Shown here: in pieces, positions 2,379-15,389 of the stretch
Numbering within the stretch: the stretch's first letter is position 1
Layout: every line of letters starts with the position of its first letter
DNA from: Macrostomum lignano
Lineage: Eukaryota
Assembly (NCBI GenBank): GCA_002269645.1
Contig: NIVC01005257.1
Span: forward strand, 1 to 15,389
Direction: 5' to 3'
DNA length: 15,389 nt
The notes under the pieces: model-generated
Told to the model about the DNA's origin: nothing
The model's database searches: none
The model's input: only the letters and a program-made list of their open reading frames with translations
Program-made: the position numbers and the translations under genes

Positions 2379-2767
2379 TGATGTAACCACGCTCTGGTCG
2401 CGGATAGGGCATGGGAACTTTTTCGAAAGTGCCTCCTATCCCGTGCACCCTCTGCACAGAGCTGTCGAGACTCGGCCAGGTCTCCGACCGGGCCTGGAGA
2501 CTCCCGCTCTGCTGCACCCCTCCTGCTGCCTTGGTCCCGTCTCTCCTGCCGCCACACCTGCCTTTCCGGAGCCCCTACCCCTTTCTGTACCTCCCCCTCT
2601 ACCCTATCTCTTCTGTTCCCGCCCTATTCTTCCTGTACTTTCTCTACTTCCTCCTTTTTTTGTCTCCCTCTGCACTCTTTTCCTGCGCTGTCCCCTCTTT
2701 CCCTGTGTCTACTTACAGTACTTTGTGTGCTCACCGTCTCCCCATCCCCTCTCAAACTCCCAAACGG

Positions 2768-3315
2768 TGACGCAAGTCGTGTGACCCCTTCTCCCCCTCG
2801 GTGACTCATCGATGACTCATCCCCCTCTCTTGCGCAACCTTTTCTCACGCTATTGTTCTCCTTCCCAAATTTCTCATGTGACACCCACCCCACCTCCGCT
2901 TCTATTGTTCTCGTTTTTGCTTCTTTTGTTCTCTCGACCCCCACCAATTATCACATTTTCTCCGATTTTCTCTTTCTTTTGTTCTCGTTTTCGCACCTAA
3001 TTATCACCTTTTCTCCAATGTTTACTTTTCCATTGTTCTCAGTTTTCCCCAATTATCCCCGATTTCCAATTCCTTTGTTCTCGACCCCAGCCCTATTGTT
3101 CTCAATGTTTGCTTGCGCAACACTTTCGCGACCACCCGCTGCGCCAATTATCCCCCACCCCACCTCCGGATTGCGCAATTTCCCGATTTCTCATGTTGCT
3201 ATGCCGGTCTCATGCTTCTCATCATGACTCATTCTGACGTCATTCTGCCGGCAGCCAATCAGAGAGAGGGAGCCATGGTAACGACCTTGAGGAGGCGGCT
3301 GTGAGGTCTATAAAA
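2768..3315 (+). promoter_or_regulatory. LTR U3 enhancer/promoter: AP-1, CRE, C/EBP-type palindromes, CCAAT box and TATA box (copy also in the 3' LTR)
   Basis: TGACTCA at 2802, 2813, 3225; TGACGTCA at 3235; TTGCGCAA at 2830, 3113, 3171; CCAAT at 3255; TATAAAA at 3309-3315. Confidence 0.7.
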
Positions 3316-3643
3316 GGAAGCGATTTCGGCATGAGAATACTCAACTGAGTTTATCTCTGTTCCTCTCCTCGTCCTTCTTTGGACTTGCTGTCAGATTGAG
3401 TTCTGACCCATTCGTCTATAAGACGAATCCCTGCCGGTCCGCGGTCTGTTACCGCCAAGTTATCCTTAGCTCCCCAAGTGAGCTCGCCTATCGGCCAGCG
3501 GTCTGATACCGCCCAGCATCATCAGCATCGCCTGATCTACATCAGCGCCTCGTCGCTCCAGCGCATCGCCGCTTCACCGTCTGCCTGACTGCAGCCTACA
3601 GCCGCCCTCGGTCACTCCGCCTCTCTCTCTCTCTGTGCAGCTG

Positions 3644-3652
3644 CCGGTAAGT
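3644..3652 (+). other. Consensus 5' splice donor CCG|GTAAGT in the LTR, ~300 nt downstream of the predicted transcription start
   Basis: Donor consensus followed by an AT-rich, intron-like stretch. Confidence 0.55.
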
Positions 3653-4594
3653 TCCTGCTACTAATTTGTGCTCTAATTGCCTTTGCTTATCCGGGGTTTG
3701 CCTATTTTCCATTGTCTGATTAGAGAGCTGAGCCAATTGTGATACCGTATCTTTTGCTGTATTTTACTCAATAGTGAAGCCGCCTAATTGCCTGCTTATT
3801 TGCCTAAGGGCCTAATTATTAACTATTAACTAACTTCATCATTATTCAATCTTTCACCATCATTTCACTCATGGCTTGCTAAGCCTTTCCCCGGGGTGGC
3901 AAAGCATAAGGAAGTTTGGGTAAGCTAATGGCCTCTCCCCGTGCAAGCCCGCCTGTGAGTGCGTGCTGCGGGGCCGCGTGTGCGTGCAGTAGAGGGATTA
4001 GCGAGTCTTGGCACAGAATGGCAGTAGGAAGGTTGCAACCCCATGCTAACGCGTCCCTTCGCCCTGAGCAATCTAAACTGTAGATAGTACATGTTCGCCT
4101 CATACTACTCTTAGTAATCAAAGTCGCAAGTCAGCCTCGCTCACAGCCACAAAGGATCCCCTGCTGAGAAATCCTCCAGGATTGAGCCCAGAGTTCCCGA
4201 TCATGCCCCAAGCAGAGTCCCTGTACTCGGCTGCATGCGTCTCCCCTGTTAGCCTAAATCCCCTGGTAACCAATCCAGGCGGGGCTCTAGCCTCGAGAGG
4301 TCTGGTAGAAAGATCCAGGTGCGCCAGGTCACATAGAGTGGTGGCAGCCACTCGGTCATACCATGACCGAGTGACCAACTATTGCACCTTGGCTACAGGT
4401 GGGGTCCATGTGGGTCCTTGGCCCTCTGGTCACGAAGCGCTACCAAAGCTACTAATCATGTGGGCGGGACAGTCTGGTGCTGGAGGTCCGTCAGGTCATT
4501 GCCCGGTCATAGGCAGCCTACGGTCATTGCCCCCTCTAGCCATGCGTTCGTCTCTCTACGGAGCGGACAGGCGACAAGGGCGGTTACATCAAAA

Positions 4595-4612
4595 TGGTGG
4601 CAGCGGTGGGAT
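4595..4612 (+). other. Primer-binding site complementary to the 3' end of tRNA-Leu (AAG/UAG type)
   Basis: TGGTGGCAGCGGTGGGAT is the reverse complement of ATCCCACCGCTGCCACCA, the 3' 18 nt of metazoan tRNA-Leu(AAG/UAG) including CCA (tRNA sequence recalled, not searched). It starts 3 nt after the LTR end. Confidence 0.9.
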
Positions 4613-6962
4613 CTGGTGCAAACAGCGCTGAGTTTCGGACTGGTGGTTTAGATGTGACAAGCGCACCTGTGGCATCCCTCAGAATGGTGGCCGAAGCGCA
4701 AAGAGTGCCATGTCTAAATCTACCAATCGTAAAAATCGCCAATCGTCATTCTCTTCCCCATGGCGTGAGGCAACAAAATCCAAAAATATTAATGTAACTT
4801 TTCAAATTTTTCGGGCTGCGAATTCGTTCAATTCATTCGAAATTTCCAAATTCATTCATTCGCCAAAAGCCCCTGATTCAATTTAAAATTAATTTAGCCG
4901 ATCAGTTTCAGCGCTAGAAAGTGTGAAGTGGTAGACGAGCGGATTTGATTACAATCAGAATAGCTACCTGGTAACGGAGTGTGTGAAGAACTGCGAAAGT
5001 GAATTTTCCGGACTCACTTTCTATTTCATGGTAATATGCTTTATTTCCCCTCCCTTTCTTTCTCTCGCCTAGCCTACAGCAGAACTGTGTGAGTGTTGAG
5101 GTGGACAGCCAGCCAGGTACGGAAGCCTCATCACGCAAGCACAGGGAAGCTGGAAGCGAAGCATTTCTTTCCTTTGTCCTACCTCTTTCTTTTACTCGGG
5201 GGAGTGTAACAGTCGCTCTCCCTGATCGCTCAGTTAATCCTAGAAATGCGTAGAGACCGGAGCGTGTTTTGTTTGTCCATTAGAATGAACAGCTATCAAG
5301 GGCTATGGGGAACTCGCTATATATGCATAGTAAGGGAAGCAGTAGTCATGGCCTTGGAAACATTGGGGGATACCAAAGTCTCGCAGGAATGGGAATAGCG
5401 GTGTGATTGTATCTCTGTAGGGTATCAGTGTGACTCAAAAATCTCGGGCTAAAAAAAGTGTCACCTCCTATGGAATACCTGCGATCAGCCCGGACCTGAA
5501 TTCTGCGGTAACCCCTGGTGCCTTCATGGCTGGGATTCGATCCCAACGTGTCTGCTGACTCTCCCCACTGTATTGCAGACCCGGTAGTAACTGCTTTGGT
5601 TGCATTTGGGCTGGTGCAGTGGCTGGAAATAGTAGATCCCATAGTATCCTATTGATAGTGGAGTTCAGTGAGTATTGGAATGGTGTACTGGAAGTCTGGT
5701 GGCCCCCAGTGATCTCGTAATGTTTCCTGCTGCATTCTCCTCCTTTAGTAATTCCTCCCCCCTGCTGTCAGTCTGATAGGGGAGGTGGGTGTGCCAATCA
5801 GCCCGACCCGGTAGAACGGCGCTCCTGCCCGACTTGTCAGCCTGGCCCAGGAAGGCGCTATTGCGCAACTCTTTTCCCCTCTGGCCACTGCAGCCCACTA
5901 AGCGCTTAGACGCAGGGTTGCATGCAGTCCCCTAATGTAAAGCCCCGGTACATAGAGTGCCACCCCAGTGCCCCGCAAGGTCAATAAGACGGGTTGACGT
6001 CTCTGGCAACTTGGAATAACCTAGATGGAGGTACCGCTGTCTCCTGGTAGAACCGGGCGTTCAAGTACAGTAAAGTGGAGAGGCTGACAACTGTAGGACT
6101 TTCTCCGCCATCAGATAAAGGTCCCAAGTATGCTATTTCGAGCTGCAGCAAAGGTGGAGTATCGGAGGGGCAAGCATTTCAGGAAGATACTCACTTAGGT
6201 CTGTTTATCCTAGGAAAGCGGGCGAGAGTTTCAGGCTTGTAATCCGCCTAACCTGAAAACTTCGGGGACAGTTTAGTCTGGACTCCCGCTGCGCGCCTTC
6301 GCTCTGAACAGAAGGGGGAGGTCTTGGTTTTTGTGGATTCTGCTAGACGTAGGGGAGCTGGATTCCCGCCTTTTGTGAAGCTGCGTGTACAAGATTGGTA
6401 GTCCTGAGGTGGAAGCCCCACTGGACTCCGACGGTTTTCCGGCTGTGCAAGGGCAGTAAAGTGGGAGGACCTCCATGGGGATTGCTCCCGCCACTTGGGT
6501 TTTTGGGTCCAGGCGCCAACGCTTCTTCGTAGTAGCTTTCTTAAGGAAATGGGGTCCGGCGCGCAACCCTAGGGGAGAATTTGTACAGGTGCCGTAAGTC
6601 CGTTTACGGTCGGCATTTGGGTTCCCTAGCATGGCCGCAAAATGAAGGTCAAGTCTCTCTGAATAGCCAATTTTTCCCTGTCAGGATGTGCCATAGACAA
6701 CTGGTAGTGGTAGCCGCAGTTTGAGTCAGTGTGCTTTGCCGAGTGAAGCCGTTAGGACTGCCTAAATGGAATTATGTGGAGCCACCCGTTTTTCAATTTG
6801 TTTTCTTCGACGCCGCAAGTGTGTGGGTTTTGTCTGTGTTGTGTGTGTGTGAGTGTGTTTGTGTGTTTCGGATCAACTTTTCGGTCTTTACCTGTAGTTG
6901 TCCCGGTTTTCTTTTCTTTTCCTTCCCGGTAGTGGGTACTCCCCCAGCTATCCGGCATTCAC

Positions 6963-8404
6963 ATGTCACGGGCGCGTGGAGATAGGGTCGTAGAAGCTGT
7001 GTGCGCAGACGCCCCTGGTCAACCACCCTCGGCCGCTGACACCCCAGCAGTTGCCGCCCCCGCAGCCGCAATGGCCGCAGCCGCTGGTAACCAGGTCCCT
7101 CAGCCTCCAGAAGCAGTAGTAGTTGAGGAACCAGATGAAGGAGTAGCAGCTCCCGCTCCCAATCAGGGTGACGCAGCAGCCGCCGCTGCTCCCCGGACGC
7201 AGCCCAGAATCCTCCTCAGGCAGTCCCGCAGCTAGGAGACTTAGTTGCGCTATAGCCAATGCGTTTAACCAGCTAAACATGGGCCAAGACGCCCAGAGGC
7301 CGAAAATCTACGTAGAAAGTTCTCTCCCGGCGAACACTGTTTTGTGCAATGGGTAGAGAGAATGATCTACAAGCTGGACGCGGAGAGAACTGTAGGAGAT
7401 CAGGCTAGGAAGCAGGTGCTCATCTCGCACCTCCCAGGTGAATTTCAGAACTTAGCCTTAGGATTGGACGGGCAATTGCCCTTTGAGCAGTTCGTATCTA
7501 GATTAGGAGAGCAGTTGGGCGAGGCCAACACTGATCTGGCTAAGAGAAATAAGCTGAAGAATCTGAGCCAGAAACCCGGCCAATCACATAGTGCTTTTGC
7601 TGCTATGATAAGATCTCAGATAACGGCCATGTTTCCTCAGATTCAGGGTGAGCAGAGAGAACAAGAAATCGTGTACACCTACTTGGAACACGCTAAGCTC
7701 CCCCGCCAGGTCAGACAAGATCTGTTGAGCCGTCGCTGGCAGACAATTGAGCAGGTGTTAGAACAGCAGCAAGCCCTGTTAGAAGCCGCAGACTTAGCCG
7801 GGAAATGGGACAGTAGTGGCCCGCCCAGGTCTGAGTCCCGCACCGAAGTCCGTCTGCAACCTCAGCAGCCACCCAGGCCCCCTCGCAAGTGGGTCAGGAT
7901 GGTGAACCAGGAAGCTGACGAGACGGAGGAGGACGGTGACGGCCTATCAGAGATGCAAGAGAGGTTGGGCGCGCTAGAGCAAACGCAAAAGGATCTGCGC
8001 AACCAGCTGGTGCAGCTCAATGAAACTATGAAGGCGACAGCAGAGTCTGTTGCCCAGCTGCCCCAGCAGATGAGGCCCCCTCGCCCCGCCACTCCCAACA
8101 GGAACTGGAGGCAGGGGCAGGGCGGCTCTAATAGCAGTAGGAACTGGCGCCAACCCCAGCCCCGCCGCTTGCAATTCAGGAGGCGCCCACGCCGCCGGCG
8201 CCGGGTGTGCAGCAGCAGCAATTGCAGCTTCGTGCGCCACCTGATCGCCATAGGCAAGATTTAGAGGAGTGGGGCAGAGATATGTTAGACGAGGCTACCA
8301 GGGAGAGGCAGGAGAGGCTCGCCCAGCTGCGCGCGCAAGCTCTGATGCCTCCTCCTTCCACGCCTGAAGAGCCCCCGGGTTCGGGAAACCCGTGGGAGGG
8401 CTGA
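6963..8404 (+). CDS. gag: Gag (Ty3/gypsy-type capsid), reconstructed across four apparent 1-nt deletions (~7193, ~7250, ~7317, ~8160)
   Basis: Reconstructed ...RPKIYVE(K)FSPGEHCFVQWVERM...NKLKNLSQKPGQSHSAFAAMIRSQITAMFP matches the retrotransposon gag pattern (L-x-Q-x-x-x-E/Q-S-x-x-x-F). It is followed by a coiled-coil-like segment and a Pro/Gln-rich tail ending SGNPWEG*. Each ORF fragment is offset by -1 from the previous one. Confidence 0.8.
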
Positions 8405-8445
8405 ATGGCCCGGCCCGAACTCAGCCCCGTTCCCTCTCTAGGGCC
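8383..8445 (+). other. Programmed -1 ribosomal frameshift signal: slippery heptamer G GGA AAC plus downstream stem-loop/pseudoknot
   Basis: The heptamer at 8383-8389 is in the gag frame. After an 8-nt spacer, GGGCTGA (8398-8404) pairs with TCAGCCC (8421-8427), and loop GGCCC can pair with GGGCC (8441-8445). The -1 frame is the protease frame and has a stop just upstream of the heptamer. Confidence 0.78.
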
Positions 8446-8907
8446 CAGCTTAACCTGCCACGTCCGCCCAGCAAGAAGTTTAGATTTGAGAAGGTACCCG
8501 ATTTCTATCAGCCAAGACCAGCTGGAGGACAACGCGGGAGAGATATTGTTGTAGAGTTGCCAATTGAGAATGTTCCCACCCGCCTCCTGGTAGATGGGGG
8601 CAGTGCGCTGTCTTTGCTAACAGTCAAAGACTTTACTAAAATTACCGGACAGAGTGTGGAGGCCCTGGAGCCCCCATGTGTGAAGGCCGTGTCCTACACG
8701 GGCAATGAATTAGAGATGCTAGGCCAGGCCACCCTCACAGCAGTTATTGGGCTAGAAGAGGTGAGAATCCTCTTTCTGGTCGTTGGCAATTCAGCAGCAG
8801 TTTCCCTCCTGGGTAGTGCTTTTCTAGCCAGTACGCATGCTATCATAGACTATCGAACAGAAAAGGTTTACTTGCTAGGTGTGAGTCTCCCATTCGACCC
8901 CCGCTGA
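8383..8907 (+). CDS. Retroviral-type (A2) aspartic protease, likely expressed as a Gag-Pro frameshift product
   Basis: RLLVDGGSALSLL active-site motif, later SLLGSAFL (ILGxDF-like) and AIIDY motifs; TGA stop at 8905-8907 directly after the domain. Confidence 0.85.
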   Translation, partial: GKPVGGLNGPARTQPRSLSRAQLNLPRPPSKKFRFEKVPDFYQPRPAGGQRGRDIVVELPIENVPTRLLVDGGSALSLLTVKDFTKITGQSVEALEPPCVKAVSYTGNELEMLGQATLTAVIGLEEVRILFLVVGNSAAVSLLGSAFLASTHAIIDYRTEKVYLLGVSLPFDPR

Positions 8908-9432
8908 GTAACAGATCGGTAGCTAGCCAGTGATTGCTTAATTCCCCCCCCCGATTCGCGTGTCGAAATTTTGCTCGTGTTGCCCCGTTGGAGACCGCTT
9001 TTCGCGTATTTACGTATGCCCTCTATTACTCGAATTTATGTTGTGACCTCGTGCTCGTTGGTGTTGTTTAAATATCTAAGATTTTAGCTCTAAGCTTCTA
9101 TGGGTCTGCTCCACAGGAGGTCCTGCCCCGCTGTTTAAGATTTTCTGGGAACAATGGAAGTCTGGGACCGTAGGAAATTAGCACCTTTAGGTCTGATTTC
9201 GTGTGTTTGTTCACACTTTGTGAAAGTCCGATTTTGGGAAACTTTTAATTGGTTTCGATGAGGCAATAGGGGGGGGGCCTTCAATGTAATTAAGTTTATC
9301 AGACAAATGGGGCAGCAATTAGTTTAGAGTAGGCCAGTGGTTTAGTCAATGTAAAGTCAGGTAAGTAATTAAAGTCAAGTTATGGGGACAGATAGTTCAG
9401 AATTAGTAAGTAAGCATTAAGAACCACCAGCA

Positions 9433-9839
9433 TCAGCAGTTGGGAAGCCGCAGAAATAGCTCCAAGAGCAGTAGCCAGTGCATTGTGAGACCGGCTATTA
9501 GGGCCGTCGACAGCACGACCAAATGCCAGGAGCCGTCGGTCTCCACCACAGGGGTTGGCAAGGGCTGTGGAGCGGCAGCCACGGGCGTCACCGCGGCGAC
9601 CGGCGGCGGAGCGTGCGCTCGGGCTGACAACGGCGGTGGTACCGGATGCCAACCGGCCCCGGACGCTGGTTCGCTGGCGGCCCGGCGGTCGCATGGCCCG
9701 GGAGCCGCGGCGCCTATGCCACCAGATGGCGCAGCCGGCCCAGAATCAGAGGGGGCGTCCGGCTCTGAATGGCTGTCTTCGGGCGCTTCGTAGTCGGACT
9801 CCTCTTCAAGGATGGGCTCGGCTACTAGCGGCCGGAATC
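9433..9839 (-). CDS. Putative terminal coding exon of an antisense gene: acidic/Pro-Ala-rich stretch plus hydrophobic C-terminal tail (134 codons, FRPLVAEPILEEESDYEAPED...WHLVVLSTALIAGLTMHWLLLLELFLRLPNC*)
   Basis: Acceptor ttctcattttcag|GA at 9840/9839 with a pyrimidine tract and CTAAT branch-like motif upstream. The frame is closed by an intronic TAG just upstream and stays open to TGA at 9433. Possible ATTAAA poly(A) signal at 9244-9249 on the minus strand. Confidence 0.5.
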
Positions 9840-9930
9840 CTGAAAATGAGAATTTAAGGGATGAAATAGAAGTAGGGAACTAGCCGGGTATTAGGATGTA
9901 GATAGATGGGGATTTTAACTTTATGGCGTG

Positions 9931-10222
9931 TGGTAGTGGCCTTCCTGGGGGTTTCTTCCTTTCTTCATTCCCTCTCCTTCCTTGAGCTCTAGGTGATCAA
10001 GTAGTGGTAGCCTTCTTCCCCGCCTTCTTTTAATGATACACCTCTAAGTGATGGCAGTTTTTCGTCTTCCTCTCCTCTGGTAGAAGGGCAATTGGTGGCA
10101 GTTTTCCCTAGCAACCTCTCTCAAAATGGTGGCTGATCCTCCTTTTCTTTTCTTTGGTAATGCGCCAAGATGGTGGTAGGTTCCCCTTTCTCTTTTATAA
10201 TAGTACATCAAACTGGTGGCAG
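9931..10222 (+). repeat. Array of seven motifs (mostly C/TAA-N1-2-TRRTGGYWG) separated by pyrimidine tracts, ~44-bp period, resembling the LTR-end/PBS junction
   Basis: Cores at 9931, 10002, 10049, 10093, 10127, 10171, 10214. TACATCAAACTGGTGGCAG (10204-10222) matches TACATCAAAATGGTGGCAG (4585-4603) at 18/19. Confidence 0.65.
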
Positions 10223-10558
10223 TCAAATTAATGATTAATTCCTCTTTCGAATTCTTTCGGCTGTTAAGTTTATGAGGGTCTCGGAGGCATGGATGAGAAC
10301 TGCGTGCGCGTGGCGTTGAAGGAAGAAATCGAAGGGAGTTGGGCCGCATCATCATTTATCCTCCGGAGTCTAATCTCCCAAATCCCTCTTCTATTCATAT
10401 TAACCAAATTAATTTGTGTGCCTGATCTGAATGTGTGCATGTGAGGTGGGAGTGCGATCTCTGTCGGCTGGAGTACGGATCTGCCGCGGGCGCGACCGGA
10501 GGTGGTCTCGGGTCTGCCCCCTGCTCACAGGTGAGGAAACAGGAAGCGGCGGAACCAG

Positions 10559-10676
10559 CCAATCAGAGCGCACGGAGACTAGAGCGAGCGGTCCCAAGCC
10601 AACGGCGACCCCGGCCGCAGCAGGTGTGCCTCCCAATGTGCTCAACCAATGGGAAGCCAGCCCCGGCACTATAAGA
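10559..10676 (+). promoter_or_regulatory. Internal Pol II-like promoter for the 449-aa ORF
   Basis: CCAAT at 10559, 10633 and 10646, and TATAAGA at 10670-10676, ~95 nt upstream of the ATG at 10769. Confidence 0.55.
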
Positions 10677-10768
10677 AGACCCACGCCTGCCAGAGCTGGA
10701 AATCATCAATCAGAGAAATCATTCTGTCCTTCAATCGCTGAAGCATTCTATGAACTATCCAGCTTGAC

Positions 10769-12118
10769 ATGGACACGAAGCCTACCATCAATCGAATTCA
10801 GCTATGCTCCAGCTTACCGTCTGAGCGTCCTGCCAGCCCAGTTAGCCGAAAGCGGCCCCGTGACGCCATCCAAGAGGCGGAGGACGGCCCCGAGCCGCCA
10901 GCGGCGGCCTCCGCCAGGGTCGAAGAAGGTGACGAGACAATCGACCCGGCCAATGCTGGGGGCGACACCGCGGACATTTCGGACATGGCGGCCGAATTCG
11001 GCGAGGCGGCCCGCCGCCTGCGTGATGTTCTGCCCAACAGCCGCCGAAGTGTGGACATCGCCCTGCAAAGAGAAGAAGTCGATTGGGGTCAGGTGGCTGG
11101 CGAACCTTCGGCGACAGCTATGGATCTGGTGCACTGGGTCGGGCCTGAGTCCTATCATGGCCCACTCCAGGCCGAGGACAGGCATGCGACTCTAGAGCGC
11201 CAACTTCGCGACAACCTGGACCGGCCCTGTCTGCTCATCCTGTCAAAAGCGGCCCTGCTGGGATTGGTTGACAATACGCTGTTAATGTACATCGAGGCAG
11301 CGGCCCAGAGCGCCTACAAATACGCCCTCGGCGACCTAGTCCGGCAGGCCGCCAAGTTCCTCCGCAAGGTTGTGGATGAGGAACCATCACACCTGACAGC
11401 CCGGCCGCCGTCCTGTGCCCCCATCACAGCAATCTTCAGCACCTGCGATCGGCCGGTCTACAAGAAGGTGATCATCAGCTGCGCAGCCTCCTCTCAGATG
11501 ACTAGACAACTGACACCAACCCAGAGAGCCCGGCTATTGATTGGCCTGGCCAGCTTGGCCAGCCGCTGGGGCATGCTTCCTGCGGACCTGCCAGGGCTGC
11601 TCTGGGGCTTCCTGAGCGAGGGCGCCGAATGGGAAGAGGCTCTCGTCATCCACGACGGCATTCTTGCGGCCTCCGCGCCGGCCTCTGCGCCCCTCCTCTA
11701 TGCGCCGTTTGCCACAGTGGCCTGGGCCGCCACTCTCTCGCAACGGTTCAATCGCCGCTGTGGGTGGGTGTTGGCGGCCCTGGGCGACGTTGAGCCCGGC
11801 TACGCGGGCCTGGCCGAGGTGCCCCGTGGCACTTTGCAGCATTTTGCAATCGCGCAGCCGCCCCTGTCTGCACCAACTCTGACACGGCTGCAACAAGTAC
11901 GGAATGCGGCCTTCGTCGTCCAATGCCAAGCCCTGGGCATCCCGACTCTGCCGCAGTTGAGGGGCGTGCTGCGCAACGACATCTTGCCTAGCCGATGGCA
12001 CCGAGTGGTGCTCACGGCCGCGGCAGCCCAACGTTATGTGGAAGCATGGGCAAGTGCCATGGCTCAGGTGGCGGCATATGGCCCGTACCAGCTAAATCAA
12101 GAGGCCCATTTCGAGTAA
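10769..12118 (+). CDS. Intact 449-aa ORF of unknown function (cargo gene); acidic/disordered N-terminus with an RKRPR NLS-like motif, Ala/Leu-rich helical body
   Basis: Uninterrupted GC-rich 1350-nt ORF with ATG-G start, upstream promoter motifs and an AT-rich 3' region (AATATA then GT-rich sequence near 12270-12290). No motif I recognise. Confidence 0.75.
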   Translation: MDTKPTINRIQLCSSLPSERPASPVSRKRPRDAIQEAEDGPEPPAAASARVEEGDETIDPANAGGDTADISDMAAEFGEAARRLRDVLPNSRRSVDIALQREEVDWGQVAGEPSATAMDLVHWVGPESYHGPLQAEDRHATLERQLRDNLDRPCLLILSKAALLGLVDNTLLMYIEAAAQSAYKYALGDLVRQAAKFLRKVVDEEPSHLTARPPSCAPITAIFSTCDRPVYKKVIISCAASSQMTRQLTPTQRARLLIGLASLASRWGMLPADLPGLLWGFLSEGAEWEEALVIHDGILAASAPASAPLLYAPFATVAWAATLSQRFNRRCGWVLAALGDVEPGYAGLAEVPRGTLQHFAIAQPPLSAPTLTRLQQVRNAAFVVQCQALGIPTLPQLRGVLRNDILPSRWHRVVLTAAAAQRYVEAWASAMAQVAAYGPYQLNQEAHFE

Positions 12119-12459
12119 GGATGCGACTGCCTGCTGAGCGACGTCCGCCGGCCGGTCCGACCCGCCTTTCCGCCCCCTTGCGTTGTGTGTTTGTCGTGTG
12201 TGTGTGTGTGAAATTATCCTATTAATATTCGGTTCTTCCATAATATTCATTTTTAAACTTTAATAACCAATATACGAGTCATTGTTGTGTCATTATTCTA
12301 AAAATTCCTAAAAATGGCTCTGTGTTGGCTGCTCACTACTTTTACCGTAAGAAAGGCCATATATTATTACTGCAATTGGCTCAGTTTAAAACGAAAGGCA
12401 TGGCGAGTGGGTAGATTTCGTTTAACGTATAGGCGAAAGGAAATCAGGTTGGTGATGGG

Positions 12460-12572
12460 ACTTACCGAGTAGTTGTATAGTTTGGAAAATCGCGCTGAGT
12501 GCCTTGGTTGGAAACTGCGACTCCGTGTAGGTTGCAGGCAGCCGGCTCCCGTTATCAGTGGCGCCTTTTATA
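12460..12572 (-). promoter_or_regulatory. Antisense TATA promoter plus short non-coding first exon ending in a consensus splice donor
   Basis: Minus-strand TATAAAAGG (+ strand 12564-12572) in GC-rich context. About 100 nt downstream is CTCG|GTAAGT (donor at 12466/12465), with no ATG in between. Confidence 0.5.
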
Positions 12573-13158
12573 CAGTGGCCAGCGCACGGCGCGGCGCCTC
12601 CCAGCCTACAACCGATCGCCCCGAAGCCCTCTGACTGGCTGAAGCGGGGTCCGAGCCTTCAAGGACGCTAGGCCTCCGTGCGGTTGAACTCCCGGCGAAA
12701 TTAGCTTATTAATTTACTGCGCTGCATTAGTATTTTTCCCCTGTGTAATCGTCATTCTCCCGAGGCTCTGCCCTTGGCTGTGTGCTAGCAACCCTTCCCC
12801 CCTTCTTTTTCCCCACTTCCCTCACCCTTCCCCGTTTCCTCTCTTTCCCAGCTGCGCTTCTATCCAATTATGATAATTTATTGTTGACAATTCGCTATTT
12901 TTCTCCCTACTATTGCGCTGTCTGTGTTTCCCCCCTCCCACTTTAGCCACAGCAACAGTTGAAATTTTTGAAATTCTGTATTGCACTCCAACCTATGTAT
13001 CTCGTTTGTGAATTTATTGCTATCCCCTCTATTTTATCGCCTTTTTCCATTCCCGCTCGCGGTTTGTTAATTCTGTGATTTCACGTTCGGTTGAGATCCC
13101 GCTCCCGTCTGTGTGGTTCCATGTTGGGCAGTGATGATGACGGAACCAGTTCCGTCAC

Positions 13159-13174
13159 AAAAGGCAGTGGGGTG
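13159..13174 (+). other. Polypurine tract-like sequence AAAAGGCAGTGGGGTG abutting the 3' LTR
   Basis: 13 of 16 bases are purines, immediately 5' of TGATGTAACC. Confidence 0.7.
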
Positions 13175-15389
13175 TGATGTAACCACGCTCTGGTCGCGGG
13201 ATAGGGCATGGGAACTTTTTCGAAAGTGCCTCCTATCCCGTGCACCCTCTGCACAGAGCTGTCGAGACTCGGCCAGGTCTCCGACCGGGCCTGGAGACTC
13301 CCGCTCTGCTGCACCCCTCCTGCTGCCTTGGTCCCGTCTCTCCTGCCGCCACACCTGCCTTTCCGGAGCCCCTACCCCTTTCTGTACCTCCCCCTCTACC
13401 CTATCTCTTCTGTTCCCGCCCTATTCTTCCTGTACTTTCTCTACCTCCTCCTTTTTTTGTCTCCCTCTGCACTCTTTTCCTGCGCTGTCCCCTCTTTCCC
13501 TGTGTCTACTTACAGTACTTTGTGTGCTCACCGTCTCCCCATCCCCTCTCAAACTCCCAAACGGTGACGCAAGTCGTGTGACCCCTTCTCCCCCTCGGTG
13601 ACTCATCGATGACTCATCCCCCTCTCTTGCGCAACCTTTTCTCACGCTATTGTTCTCCTTCCCAAATTTCTCATGTGACACCCACCCCACCTCCGCTTCT
13701 ATTGTTCTCGTTTTTGCTTCTTTTGTTCTCTCGACCCCACCAATTATCACATTTTCTCCGATTTTCTCTTTCTTTTGTTCTCGTTTTCGCACCTAATTAT
13801 CACCTTTTCTCCAATGTTTACTTTTCCATTGTTCTCAGTTTTCCCCAATTATCCCCGATTTCCAATTCCTTTGTTCTCGACCCCAGCCCTATTGTTCTCA
13901 ATGTTTGCTTGCGCAACACTTTCGCGACCACCCGCTGCGCCAATTATCCCCCCACCCCACCTCCGGATTGCGCAATTTCCCGATTTCTCATGTTGCTATG
14001 CCGGTCTCATGCTTCTCATCATGACTCATTCTGACGTCATTCTGCCGGCAGCCAATCAGAGAGAGGGAGCCATGGTAACGACCTTGAGGAGGCGGCTGTG
14101 AGGTCTATAAAAGGAAGCGATTTCGGCATGAGAATACTCAACTGAGTTTATCTCTGTTCCTCTCCTCGTCCTTCTTTGGACTTGCTGTCAGATTGAGTTC
14201 TGACCCATTCGTCTATAAGACGAATCCCTGCCGGTCCGCGGTCTGTTACCGCCAAGTTATCCTTAGCTCCCCAAGTGAGCTCGCCTATCGGCCAGCGGTC
14301 TGATACCGCCCAGCATCATCAGCATCGCCTGATCTACATCAGCGCCTCGTCGCTCCAGCGCATCGCCGCTTCACCGTCTGCCTGACTGCAGCCTACAGCC
14401 GCCCTCGGTCACTCCGCCTCTCTCTCTCTCTGTGCAGCTGCCGGTAAGTTCCTGCTACTAATTTGTGCTCTAATTGCCTTTGCTTATCCGGGGTTTGCCT
14501 ATTTTCCATTGTCTGATTAGAGAGCTGAGCCAATTGTGATACCGTATCTTTTGCTGTATTTTACTCAATAGTGAAGCCGCCTAATTGCCTGCTTATTTGC
14601 CTAAGGGCCTAATTATTAACTATTAACTAACTTCATCATTATTCAATCTTTCACCATCATTTCACTCATGGCTTGCTAAGCCTTTCTCCCGGGGTGGCAA
14701 AGCATAAGGAAGTTTGGGTAAGCTAATGGCCTCTCCCCGTGCAAAGCCCGCCTGTGAGTGCGTGCTGCGGGGCCGCGTGTGCGTGCAGTAGAGGGATTAG
14801 CGAGTCTTGGCACAGAATGGCAGTAGGAAGGTTGCAACCCCATGCTAACGCGTCCCTTCGCCCTGAGCAATCTAAACTGTAGACAGTACATGTTCGCCTC
14901 ATACTACTCTTAGTAATCAAAGTCGCAAGTCAGCCTCGCTCACAGCCACAAAGGATCCCCTGCTGAGAAATCCTCCAGGATTGAGCCCAGAGTTCCCGAT
15001 CATGCCCCAAGCAGAGTCCCTGTACTCGGCTGCATGCGTCTCCCCTGTTAGCCTAAATCCCCTGGTAACCAATCCAGGCGGGGCTCTAGCCTCGAGAGGT
15101 CTGGTAGAAAGATCCAGGTGCGCCAGGTCACATAGAGTGGTGGCAGCCACTCGGTCATACATGACCGAGTGACCAACTATTGCACCTTGGCTACAGGTGG
15201 GGTCCATGTGGGTCCTTGGCCCTCTGGTCACGAAGCGCTACCAAAGCTACTAATCATGTGGCGGGACAGTCTGGTGCTGGAGGTCCGTCAGGTCATTGCC
15301 CGGTCATAGGCAGCCTACGGTCATTGCCCCCTCTAGCCATGCGTTCGTCTCTCTACGGAGCGGACAGGCGACAAAGGGCGGTTACATCA
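13175..15389 (+). repeat. 3' LTR (2215 bp)
   Basis: Differs from the 5' LTR by 2 substitutions and 8 single-base indels by my manual comparison; ends GGTTACATCA at the last base of the window. Confidence 0.96.

Follow-up and report, generated by a model that had tools for sequence, protein, structure and literature searches.

A tandem array of LTR/primer-binding-site-like units in a non-autonomous Ty3/gypsy element of Macrostomum lignano

The element, its helper and its private cassette

The window, by which we mean the whole 15,389-nucleotide stretch analysed here (contig NIVC01005257.1 of Macrostomum lignano), represents one young, non-autonomous LTR element. A TG...CA LTR pair, a PBS (primer-binding site) as well as a purine tract are all present, as expected of a Ty3/gypsy LTR retrotransposon. 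Its 2.2-kb LTRs differ from each other by 2 mismatches and 9 gap columns, and a 4-bp target-site duplication is seen at the insertion C2392. The tRNA-Leu(AAG) pattern has 12 matches in the genome, 2 of which were checked with ARAGORN. The features of the window are as follows.

2379..4590, plus strand: 5' LTR with TGATG...CATCA ends, about 99% identical to the helper LTR
4339..4347, plus strand: perfect PBS 9-mer in U5, inside a predicted hairpin
4595..4612, plus strand: PBS, an 18/18 match to tRNA-Leu(AAG) of the element's own genome
4642..4693, plus strand: two more TGGTGG motifs in the leader shared with the helper, 47 and 90 nt past the PBS start, the second resembling array unit w5
7153..12343, plus strand: private cassette replacing the helper gag-pol, delimited by comparison with the helper
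7269..8264, plus strand: Gag-like ORF segment, about 27% identical to the helper Gag and 37-38% to the sister family
8368..8907, plus strand: aspartic-protease-like ORF (gag-asp_proteas, E=0.021, under the cut-off)
9433..9839, minus strand: antisense exon, likely coding (23 synonymous versus 15 non-synonymous codon changes against copy C100; hydrophobic C-terminus)
9840..10817, minus strand: antisense GT..AG intron holding the array and the internal promoter, seen as a CT..AC joint in run contigs
9931..10222, plus strand: degenerate tandem array, recognised from its sequence, with 7 units here and 9 in most copies
10559..10675, plus strand: predicted internal promoter, comprising a TATA box at 10670 plus three CCAAT boxes, its function being inferred
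10769..12118, plus strand: cargo ORF (222/447 third positions changed, versus 73 and 41, against C100)
13175..15389, plus strand: 3' LTR, with a purine tract in front

A Pfam scan of the 16 window ORFs returned no hit to reverse transcriptase (RT) or integrase. When the Gag-like ORF was used as a query, three groups were recovered: its own family, a sister family (37-40% identity) and a set of long ORFs (28%). One of these long ORFs, that of the helper, spans 1503 aa and encodes RVT_1, RNase H, H2C2 and rve domains, arranged as is usual for Ty3/gypsy. At the three helper places fetched (G000 C2803, C936 and C2925), helper and window are about 99% identical over 2379-7153 and 12343-15389 and unrelated between; the LTRs, the 2.5-kb leader and the 3' UTR are thus common to helper and parasite. 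Because the window lacks RT and integrase and shares ends of about 99% identity with an RT-bearing helper, we regard it as a non-autonomous partner in which a private cassette has replaced gag-pol. At least 56 places carry the array versus at least 8 helper-type gag hits, duplicates being counted in both.

The cassette contains Gag, the protease-like ORF, the antisense exon, the array, the predicted promoter and the cargo ORF. The Gag-like ORF at 7269..8264 had no match over the cut-off in a Pfam search, and searches for relatives with the protease and the cargo returned only the window family and one sister family, which uses the same tRNA. Codon changes point to strong purifying selection on the cargo ORF. 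Members of the cargo family are found at window 10769-12118, at L125 6133-7347 (minus strand) and in public assemblies (P0010, P0012, P0013), and the pattern H-x-G...YAP...WA is common to both non-autonomous families and these few assemblies. The cargo protein fell into no Pfam family and had no match in a word-index search; comparison with cluster representatives gave 3 hits, one of them likely low-complexity, a homologue gave no usable hit in the Atlas, and the structural model (pLDDT 60.7) had no fold match at E<=0.001 in the PDB or viral libraries. A 72%-identical relic at L053 7094-8686 (G000 C201) holds the promoter and the cargo gene; within the part retrieved it has no array, no antisense exon and no gag.

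The earlier note had placed the array within an antisense intron, and this is supported by good splice signals and by a CT..AC joint that skips 9840-10817 in the contigs of 2 of the 8 runs. This joint has 28 letters on its short side, comes from two studies, and is read from contigs alone in runs whose RNA status is guessed. The 9839-10818 joint is absent from 67/67 genomic locus sites checked. The array lies 90-380 nt before the acceptor of this intron and ends about 450 bp before the internal TATA box, while the putative antisense transcript spans the cargo gene into the likely coding exon and has its intron donor inside the cargo ORF. Within U3, a degenerate repeat of about 53 nt at 2841-3102, with 6-7 TTGTTCTC-type cores, precedes the LTR TATA box at 3309 and is likely an enhancer array.

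Several further observations concern the copy and its surroundings. The host flank holds 19-21-nt minisatellites (1-338, 771-1726 and 2140-2378) and a short PI-PLC-X-like exon match at 1870-2574 on the minus strand (E=2.9e-06), so that the element likely sits inside a host gene intron. The window copy is without about 68 nt at 9090-9096 that are present in contigs of all 8 runs and in other genomic copies, and its gag region carries single-base indels relative to both. Elsewhere in the family, C1570 has a 6.3-kb insertion at window 9093-9096, tandem copies with a common LTR occur at C4958, and a leader motif is doubled on C546 and C3414. In C616, C3989 and C3922, 2.1 kb of extra DNA is inserted next to the internal TATA box. 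We had considered that these extras might be an LTR inserted in the array, which was rejected since they map to 10663-10666.

The array and its distribution among copies

Each unit consists of CA, 2-3 nt, a TGGTGGYAG-type core, a pyrimidine tract and a TAAT-like motif, repeated with a period of 34-47 nt. All 7 motif matches lie on the sense strand, and the cores, scored against the first nine PBS letters, are these.

9931..9939, plus strand: w1, weak (6/9), without CAA before the core
10002..10010, plus strand: w2, 7/9, with a mismatch opposite the tRNA CCA and a 12-mer in common with the leader near 6704
10049..10057, plus strand: w3, 8/9, with a mismatch opposite the tRNA CCA
10093..10101, plus strand: w4, 9/9; a 75-nt two-unit stretch of most copies is absent directly upstream
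10127..10135, plus strand: w5, 8/9, with 13 contiguous nt equal to the LTR/PBS junction
10171..10179, plus strand: w6, 8/9, G-U compatible
10214..10222, plus strand: w7, 9/9, with 18/19 nt equal to LTR end plus PBS; missing from copy C100

The earlier note had described seven mimics of the LTR-end/PBS junction at spacings of 71, 47, 44, 34, 44 and 43 nt, six of them with a YAA-N1-2 prefix. Positions, spacings and prefixes were confirmed, as was the closeness of w7 and w5 to the true junction; all seven cores are present, though the first, at 9931, falls short of the description. The spacers are pyrimidine-rich as claimed (66-74%). Shuffling indicates that the clustering is real: five cores with at most 1 mismatch to the PBS 9-mer fall within 300 nt, which was reached in 0/500 whole-element and 0/2000 local dinucleotide shuffles, and when any non-pyrimidine 9-mer was allowed to compete the best cluster reached five in 0/200 local shuffles. 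TGGTG occurs at 14 per kb around the PBS and 12 per kb in the array, versus 0-1.8 elsewhere.

The view that this is not a simple tandem duplication fared less well. Tested against composition shuffles, spacer pairs are related at p<0.05 in 6 of 21 comparisons in a 9-unit copy and in 4 of 10 in C100, a diverged copy, and the duplication of a two-unit block can be seen within the array. Because the spacers are mutually related, we regard the array as a degenerate tandem repeat. Being family-specific, built of related units in variable number and placed behind coding genes, it belongs with the Retand-type internal tandem arrays. A coding repeat was rejected, the unit spacings not being multiples of three. 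The antisense ORF crossing the array (10044-10355) had no Pfam match, the array sequence gave 0 matches to Rfam at E<=1, and its pattern gave 0 matches in metagenome contigs. A promoter and terminator scan made for bacteria, and not for this host, stayed at chance level. A loose triple-core pattern had 4462 matches genome-wide, and the 100 listed were satellites.

PBS-like motifs also occur outside the array. The U5 9-mer is found in the sister family as well (L123 2748), about 240-256 nt before the PBS in both families, and is kept by both even though their LTRs cannot be aligned; in the window family it accompanies a predicted multi-hairpin fold with z of -3.4.

The array was found to be private to the non-autonomous element, as it is absent from the helper (0/3 places fetched); it is likewise absent from the sister family (7/7 places fetched, of about 15 found). 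Unit w2 is found in 56 genomic places. Of the 58 places examined, alignment through both array ends succeeded for 56: 44 have the long form of 9 units, 10 the window type of 7, C100 another 7-unit form and C513 6 units. These are places rather than insertions, and at least 1 contig pair represents one insertion. A sub-family of 16 places (e.g. C546, C1413, C3414, C4418) has lost the promoter and the cargo gene by a deletion from 10306 to 12259, near GT-rich repeats, and is still multi-copy; the array is retained in 16/16 of these places once aligned.

Comparison of cores with spacers gave a divided answer. Against C100, 7/64 core sites differ (11%) versus 52/179 spacer sites (29%; p=0.002) and 10/141 flank sites (7%), a contrast inflated by an alignment anchored on the cores and by units that are perhaps not orthologous. 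In the nearby antisense exon, 17/81 fourfold sites differ, so that the spacers look neutral and the cores, although lower (p=0.08), are not significantly below neutral. The young copies showed no sparing of the cores: shared variants strike 6/81 core sites versus 10/246 spacer sites in 52 places, with 2 unclassified places and two diverged copies excluded. Because young variants strike the cores freely, there is no sign of present-day protection, and core conservation is real but modest. Across 23 distinct units from four lineages, core positions 1, 4 and 5 are invariant, and CA stands 2-3 nt before the core in 20 of the 23; at the true LTR/PBS junction this spacing is 3 nt in the window family and 2 nt in the sister family.

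Predicted pairing with tRNA-Leu and the footprint at unit w5

The claim that the units copy the LTR-end/PBS junction held, with a clear limit on its extent. The CA-N2-3-TGGTGGYAG core corresponds to the junction plus only nt 1-9 of the 18-nt tRNA-Leu(AAG) site. At nt 10-18 just 1-2/9 letters agree, and no unit reaches the 18-nt length of the element's own PBS. Since a repeated 14-mer would not match one site by chance, the unit presumably descends from the LTR/PBS junction. Counted from the CCA end of the tRNA, 2 of the 7 cores are perfectly complementary over 9 nt, 1 is G-U compatible, 1 is perfect over 7 nt, and the other 3 have mismatches within the first five positions. Duplexes of three window cores with the last 9 nt of the tRNA are predicted at -16.7, -16.8 and -15.6 kcal/mol, on par with the PBS over this length and close to the 0.1 percentile of the element (-15.7); the full PBS duplex, at -39.4 versus -12 to -22 kcal/mol, is far stronger. 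Among 21 departures from the tRNA complement in the 23 distinct units, 9 are wobble-compatible and 12 are not, 4 of the 12 lying opposite CCA, and the CA-AA before the cores is not explained by tRNA pairing.

The spacers offered no additional boxes for the rest of the tRNA beyond chance, 50-290 of 300 shuffles equalling them, so that the pairing with another tRNA part that marks a bipartite or multipartite PBS was not found. On both strands the array alone folds less than 100/100 shuffles (z +3.2 for the array RNA), while in a 750-nt fold the openness of the cores does not exceed that of the sequence around them (0.19-0.67 vs 0.39-0.43).

One insertion carries a mark of what may have happened at a unit. 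C2392 and C237 share the same flank, and therefore represent one insertion, with normal LTR ends. Its cassette has a deletion from unit w5 to about 12073, and over 18 nt the junction equals window 4589-4606, so that the unit is extended to 12 nt of PBS. Five letters at the junction go beyond the parent unit's own, all of them continuing the PBS, and the PBS is the only source in the element of at least 9 nt for the junction letters; four of the five also resemble the right-hand flank. PBS-templated letters at an array unit are consistent with the junction-copy reading, and by its letters the junction records synthesis on a tRNA or PBS template. A simple deletion accompanied by two additional errors could also account for it but is unlikely, because the copy is otherwise about 99% identical, while a switch of template to the true junction, guided by 12 nt of homology and with no priming, could equally have given the same result. 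A mini-element running from LTR through PBS to 12073 with this junction was found nowhere in the assembly; three one-mismatch hits to such a junction were rejected as belonging to unrelated DNA.

No second PBS-templated event was found among 47 distinct array segments or by a genome-wide pattern, and the leader look-alike at +90 showed PBS-type conversion in 0/61 places, being uniform in all 61. The other unit gains and losses (the window type, two in C100 and two in C513) are crossovers in spacers or CAA, or removed a core. Because these five events cross outside the cores or remove one, routine priming does not appear to drive unit turnover. Units as integration ends were rejected, as no copy ends at a unit CA among the aligned family loci.

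Readings of the array and comparison with known systems

The identity with the LTR/PBS junction, the tandem structure, the restriction to the parasite and the one junction with PBS letters are observed, and we consider the array to be real, parasite-specific and the apparent bearer of one direct sign of RT use at a unit. Its origin is the firmer part of our reading: very probably, a fragment of the LTR/PBS junction was copied once into the cassette during reverse transcription and was then multiplied in tandem. For its present role, the reading that we favour, tentatively and with something short of even confidence, is a row of weak half primer sites on the genomic RNA. Such half-sites would hold the ACCA tails of tRNA-Leu, loading primer or helper RT onto the parasite RNA, and now and then a unit would act as a priming or strand-transfer point. 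In the C2392/C237 insertion, the PBS and an array unit may both have been primed in one round; plus-strand DNA would have copied the left half, crossed the 3' end of the inner tRNA, copied 12 nt and then landed downstream on the right half, giving normal LTR ends and the observed deletion. Against the half-site reading count the single footprint, the unit losses away from cores, the cores hit in young copies, cores that against C100 are kept no better than the flanks, and a sister family that shares the PBS and the life style but manages without an array.

Alternatively, and with a lower though still substantial chance of being correct, the array could be a homotypic cluster of protein-binding sites, acting at the DNA level on the internal promoter, 450-740 bp downstream, as its enhancer or insulator, or as an RNA element for Gag binding, export or splicing; the likeness to the PBS would then record the origin of the array and not its function. 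This is consistent with its position directly upstream of the TATA box and its three CCAAT boxes, with the like design of the LTR, where a degenerate short-core repeat (6-7 TTGTTCTC-type copies) lies 210-460 bp before the TATA box, with its location in a spliced antisense intron, and with related leader motifs (+47, +90 and near 6704). The conserved stretch also takes in CA-AA, which the tRNA cannot read, and in promoter-less copies shared changes away from the motif affect 4/121 motif sites versus 1/246 spacer sites, compared with 1 and 2 in promoter-bearing copies, the numbers being small. However, none of the known motifs compared fits all units (a YY1-type core matches 2/7 and an E-box 1/7), the spacing from CA to core is not fixed (2 or 3 nt), neither the promoter of the C201 relative nor that of the sister family is accompanied by an array, and 16 promoter-less places retain it. 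Motif enrichment around the PBS is weak as well, being equalled in 11/1000 shuffles downstream in the window family and in 24-49/1000 upstream in the sister family.

The array might also be a neutral scar, an LTR/PBS fragment multiplied by slippage in which unit turnover keeps the cores alike while the pyrimidine spacers mutate fast; this we consider improbable. The available text of PMC11963269 describes such internal arrays as common and of unexplained function. A scar would fit the variable unit number (among 56, 44 long and 10 like the window, besides one different form of 7 units and one of 6), the young variants that do not spare the cores, the core divergence not significantly under local fourfold sites, a helper and a sister family that manage without an array, and a host genome rich in minisatellites. 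On the other side, cores differ from C100 less than spacers do, to the extent given above for an alignment that inflates the contrast, and 36/75 differences retain a pyrimidine. The array has also been lost from no full-cassette copy examined, while at least 3 separate large deletions remove DNA to its right.

A bolder version of the half-site reading, and a long shot, makes the array a "central primer tract": a second minus-strand origin inside the element, made up of several sites and placed halfway along the template. It would have evolved in a parasite without its own RT, whose RNA would load extra tRNA-Leu and helper RT and be copied as two halves, as the minus-strand counterpart of a central polypurine tract. 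With an assumed start site, the array does fall near the midpoint of the minus-strand path (5163 vs 5318-5601 nt), a position that does not hold in the promoter-less sub-family.

Two further proposals of the earlier note, that the array could act as a decoy against silencing by tRNA fragments and that its antisense strand could supply self-encoded primers ending in CCA, did not hold up. The region is transcribed and spliced on its antisense strand, as far as contigs of guessed RNA status tell, and 11/21 core departures would still allow G-U pairing if an antisense unit met the PBS, yet we find both ideas very unlikely: the array contains no seed target for 3' fragments of 17, 18, 19 or 22 nt and does not pair as PBS nt 10-18 does, whereas the PBS has such targets for three of the four lengths, and the other 10/21 departures, among the 23 distinct units, break pairing with the PBS and the antisense units sit inside an intron and show no tRNA-like fold or Rfam match. 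tRNA fragments are reported to require seed or near-perfect pairing, in the part of PMC7472051 that was available.

The system is of interest because the origin of the array can be traced to the LTR/PBS junction of the element itself, a helper that is 99% identical but has no array provides a matched control, and a natural reverse-transcription footprint is at hand. If the units bind or prime tRNA, the parasite would compete with its helper for primer and RT by means of multiplied half-sites, for which no prior description was found; if they bind protein, a primer site would have been turned into a regulatory array. A search of mainly open-access literature brought up nothing that describes PBS half-sites in an array.

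Retroviral vectors with two PBSs (Voronin and Pathak, 2004) reportedly initiate at both sites and yield rearranged products. Unlike these engineered vectors with full 18-nt sites, the array consists of natural half-sites with one genomic footprint. The gypsy insulator, for its part, has a repeated-site structure. Like it and like LTR enhancer arrays, the array lies in non-coding sequence of a Ty3/gypsy element and alternates short conserved cores with spacers of low complexity; unlike the insulator, it has the 5' half of the PBS as its core.

Closer parallels come from the primer sites of gypsy and Ty3. In the sections of PMC1635307 available, which also mention the gypsy insulator, gypsy has a second tRNA site of 11 nt for another part of the tRNA, which binds tRNA in vitro and is dispensable for cDNA synthesis, and the corresponding sections of PMC5371799 describe a bipartite PBS in yeast Ty3. 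As in these accounts, our Ty3/gypsy element has extra primer-tRNA-binding sequence far from the 5' PBS, the binding here being predicted. The extra sites of gypsy and Ty3, as described there, are single and pair with the anticodon and T stems or the T arm. They pair another part of the tRNA and are therefore able to bridge RNA ends, whereas the array offers 7-9 tandem sites for the PBS-type 3' end, of at most 9 nt each, with an LTR-end-like CA in front.

Retand-type plant elements, in the portions of PMC11963269 and PMC7264820 available, commonly have unexplained internal tandem arrays beside antisense ORFs. The array resembles these in being family-specific, variable in length, and placed behind coding genes and next to antisense or extra ORFs, and non-autonomous members occur in both. 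It differs in belonging to an animal-type element with a tRNA-Leu PBS and a 4-bp target duplication, and in that its unit copies the element's own LTR/PBS junction, unlike the units described in those portions. Finally, the LTRs of the TRIMs Helenus, Ajax and Cassandra contain promoter sequence derived from tRNA or 5S, which the accessible part of PMC10886601 states to be non-complementary to the PBS. Like them, as portrayed there, the window is a non-autonomous LTR element with small-RNA-related sequence besides its PBS; unlike them, it carries short complements of a tRNA end, repeated inside a coding cassette.
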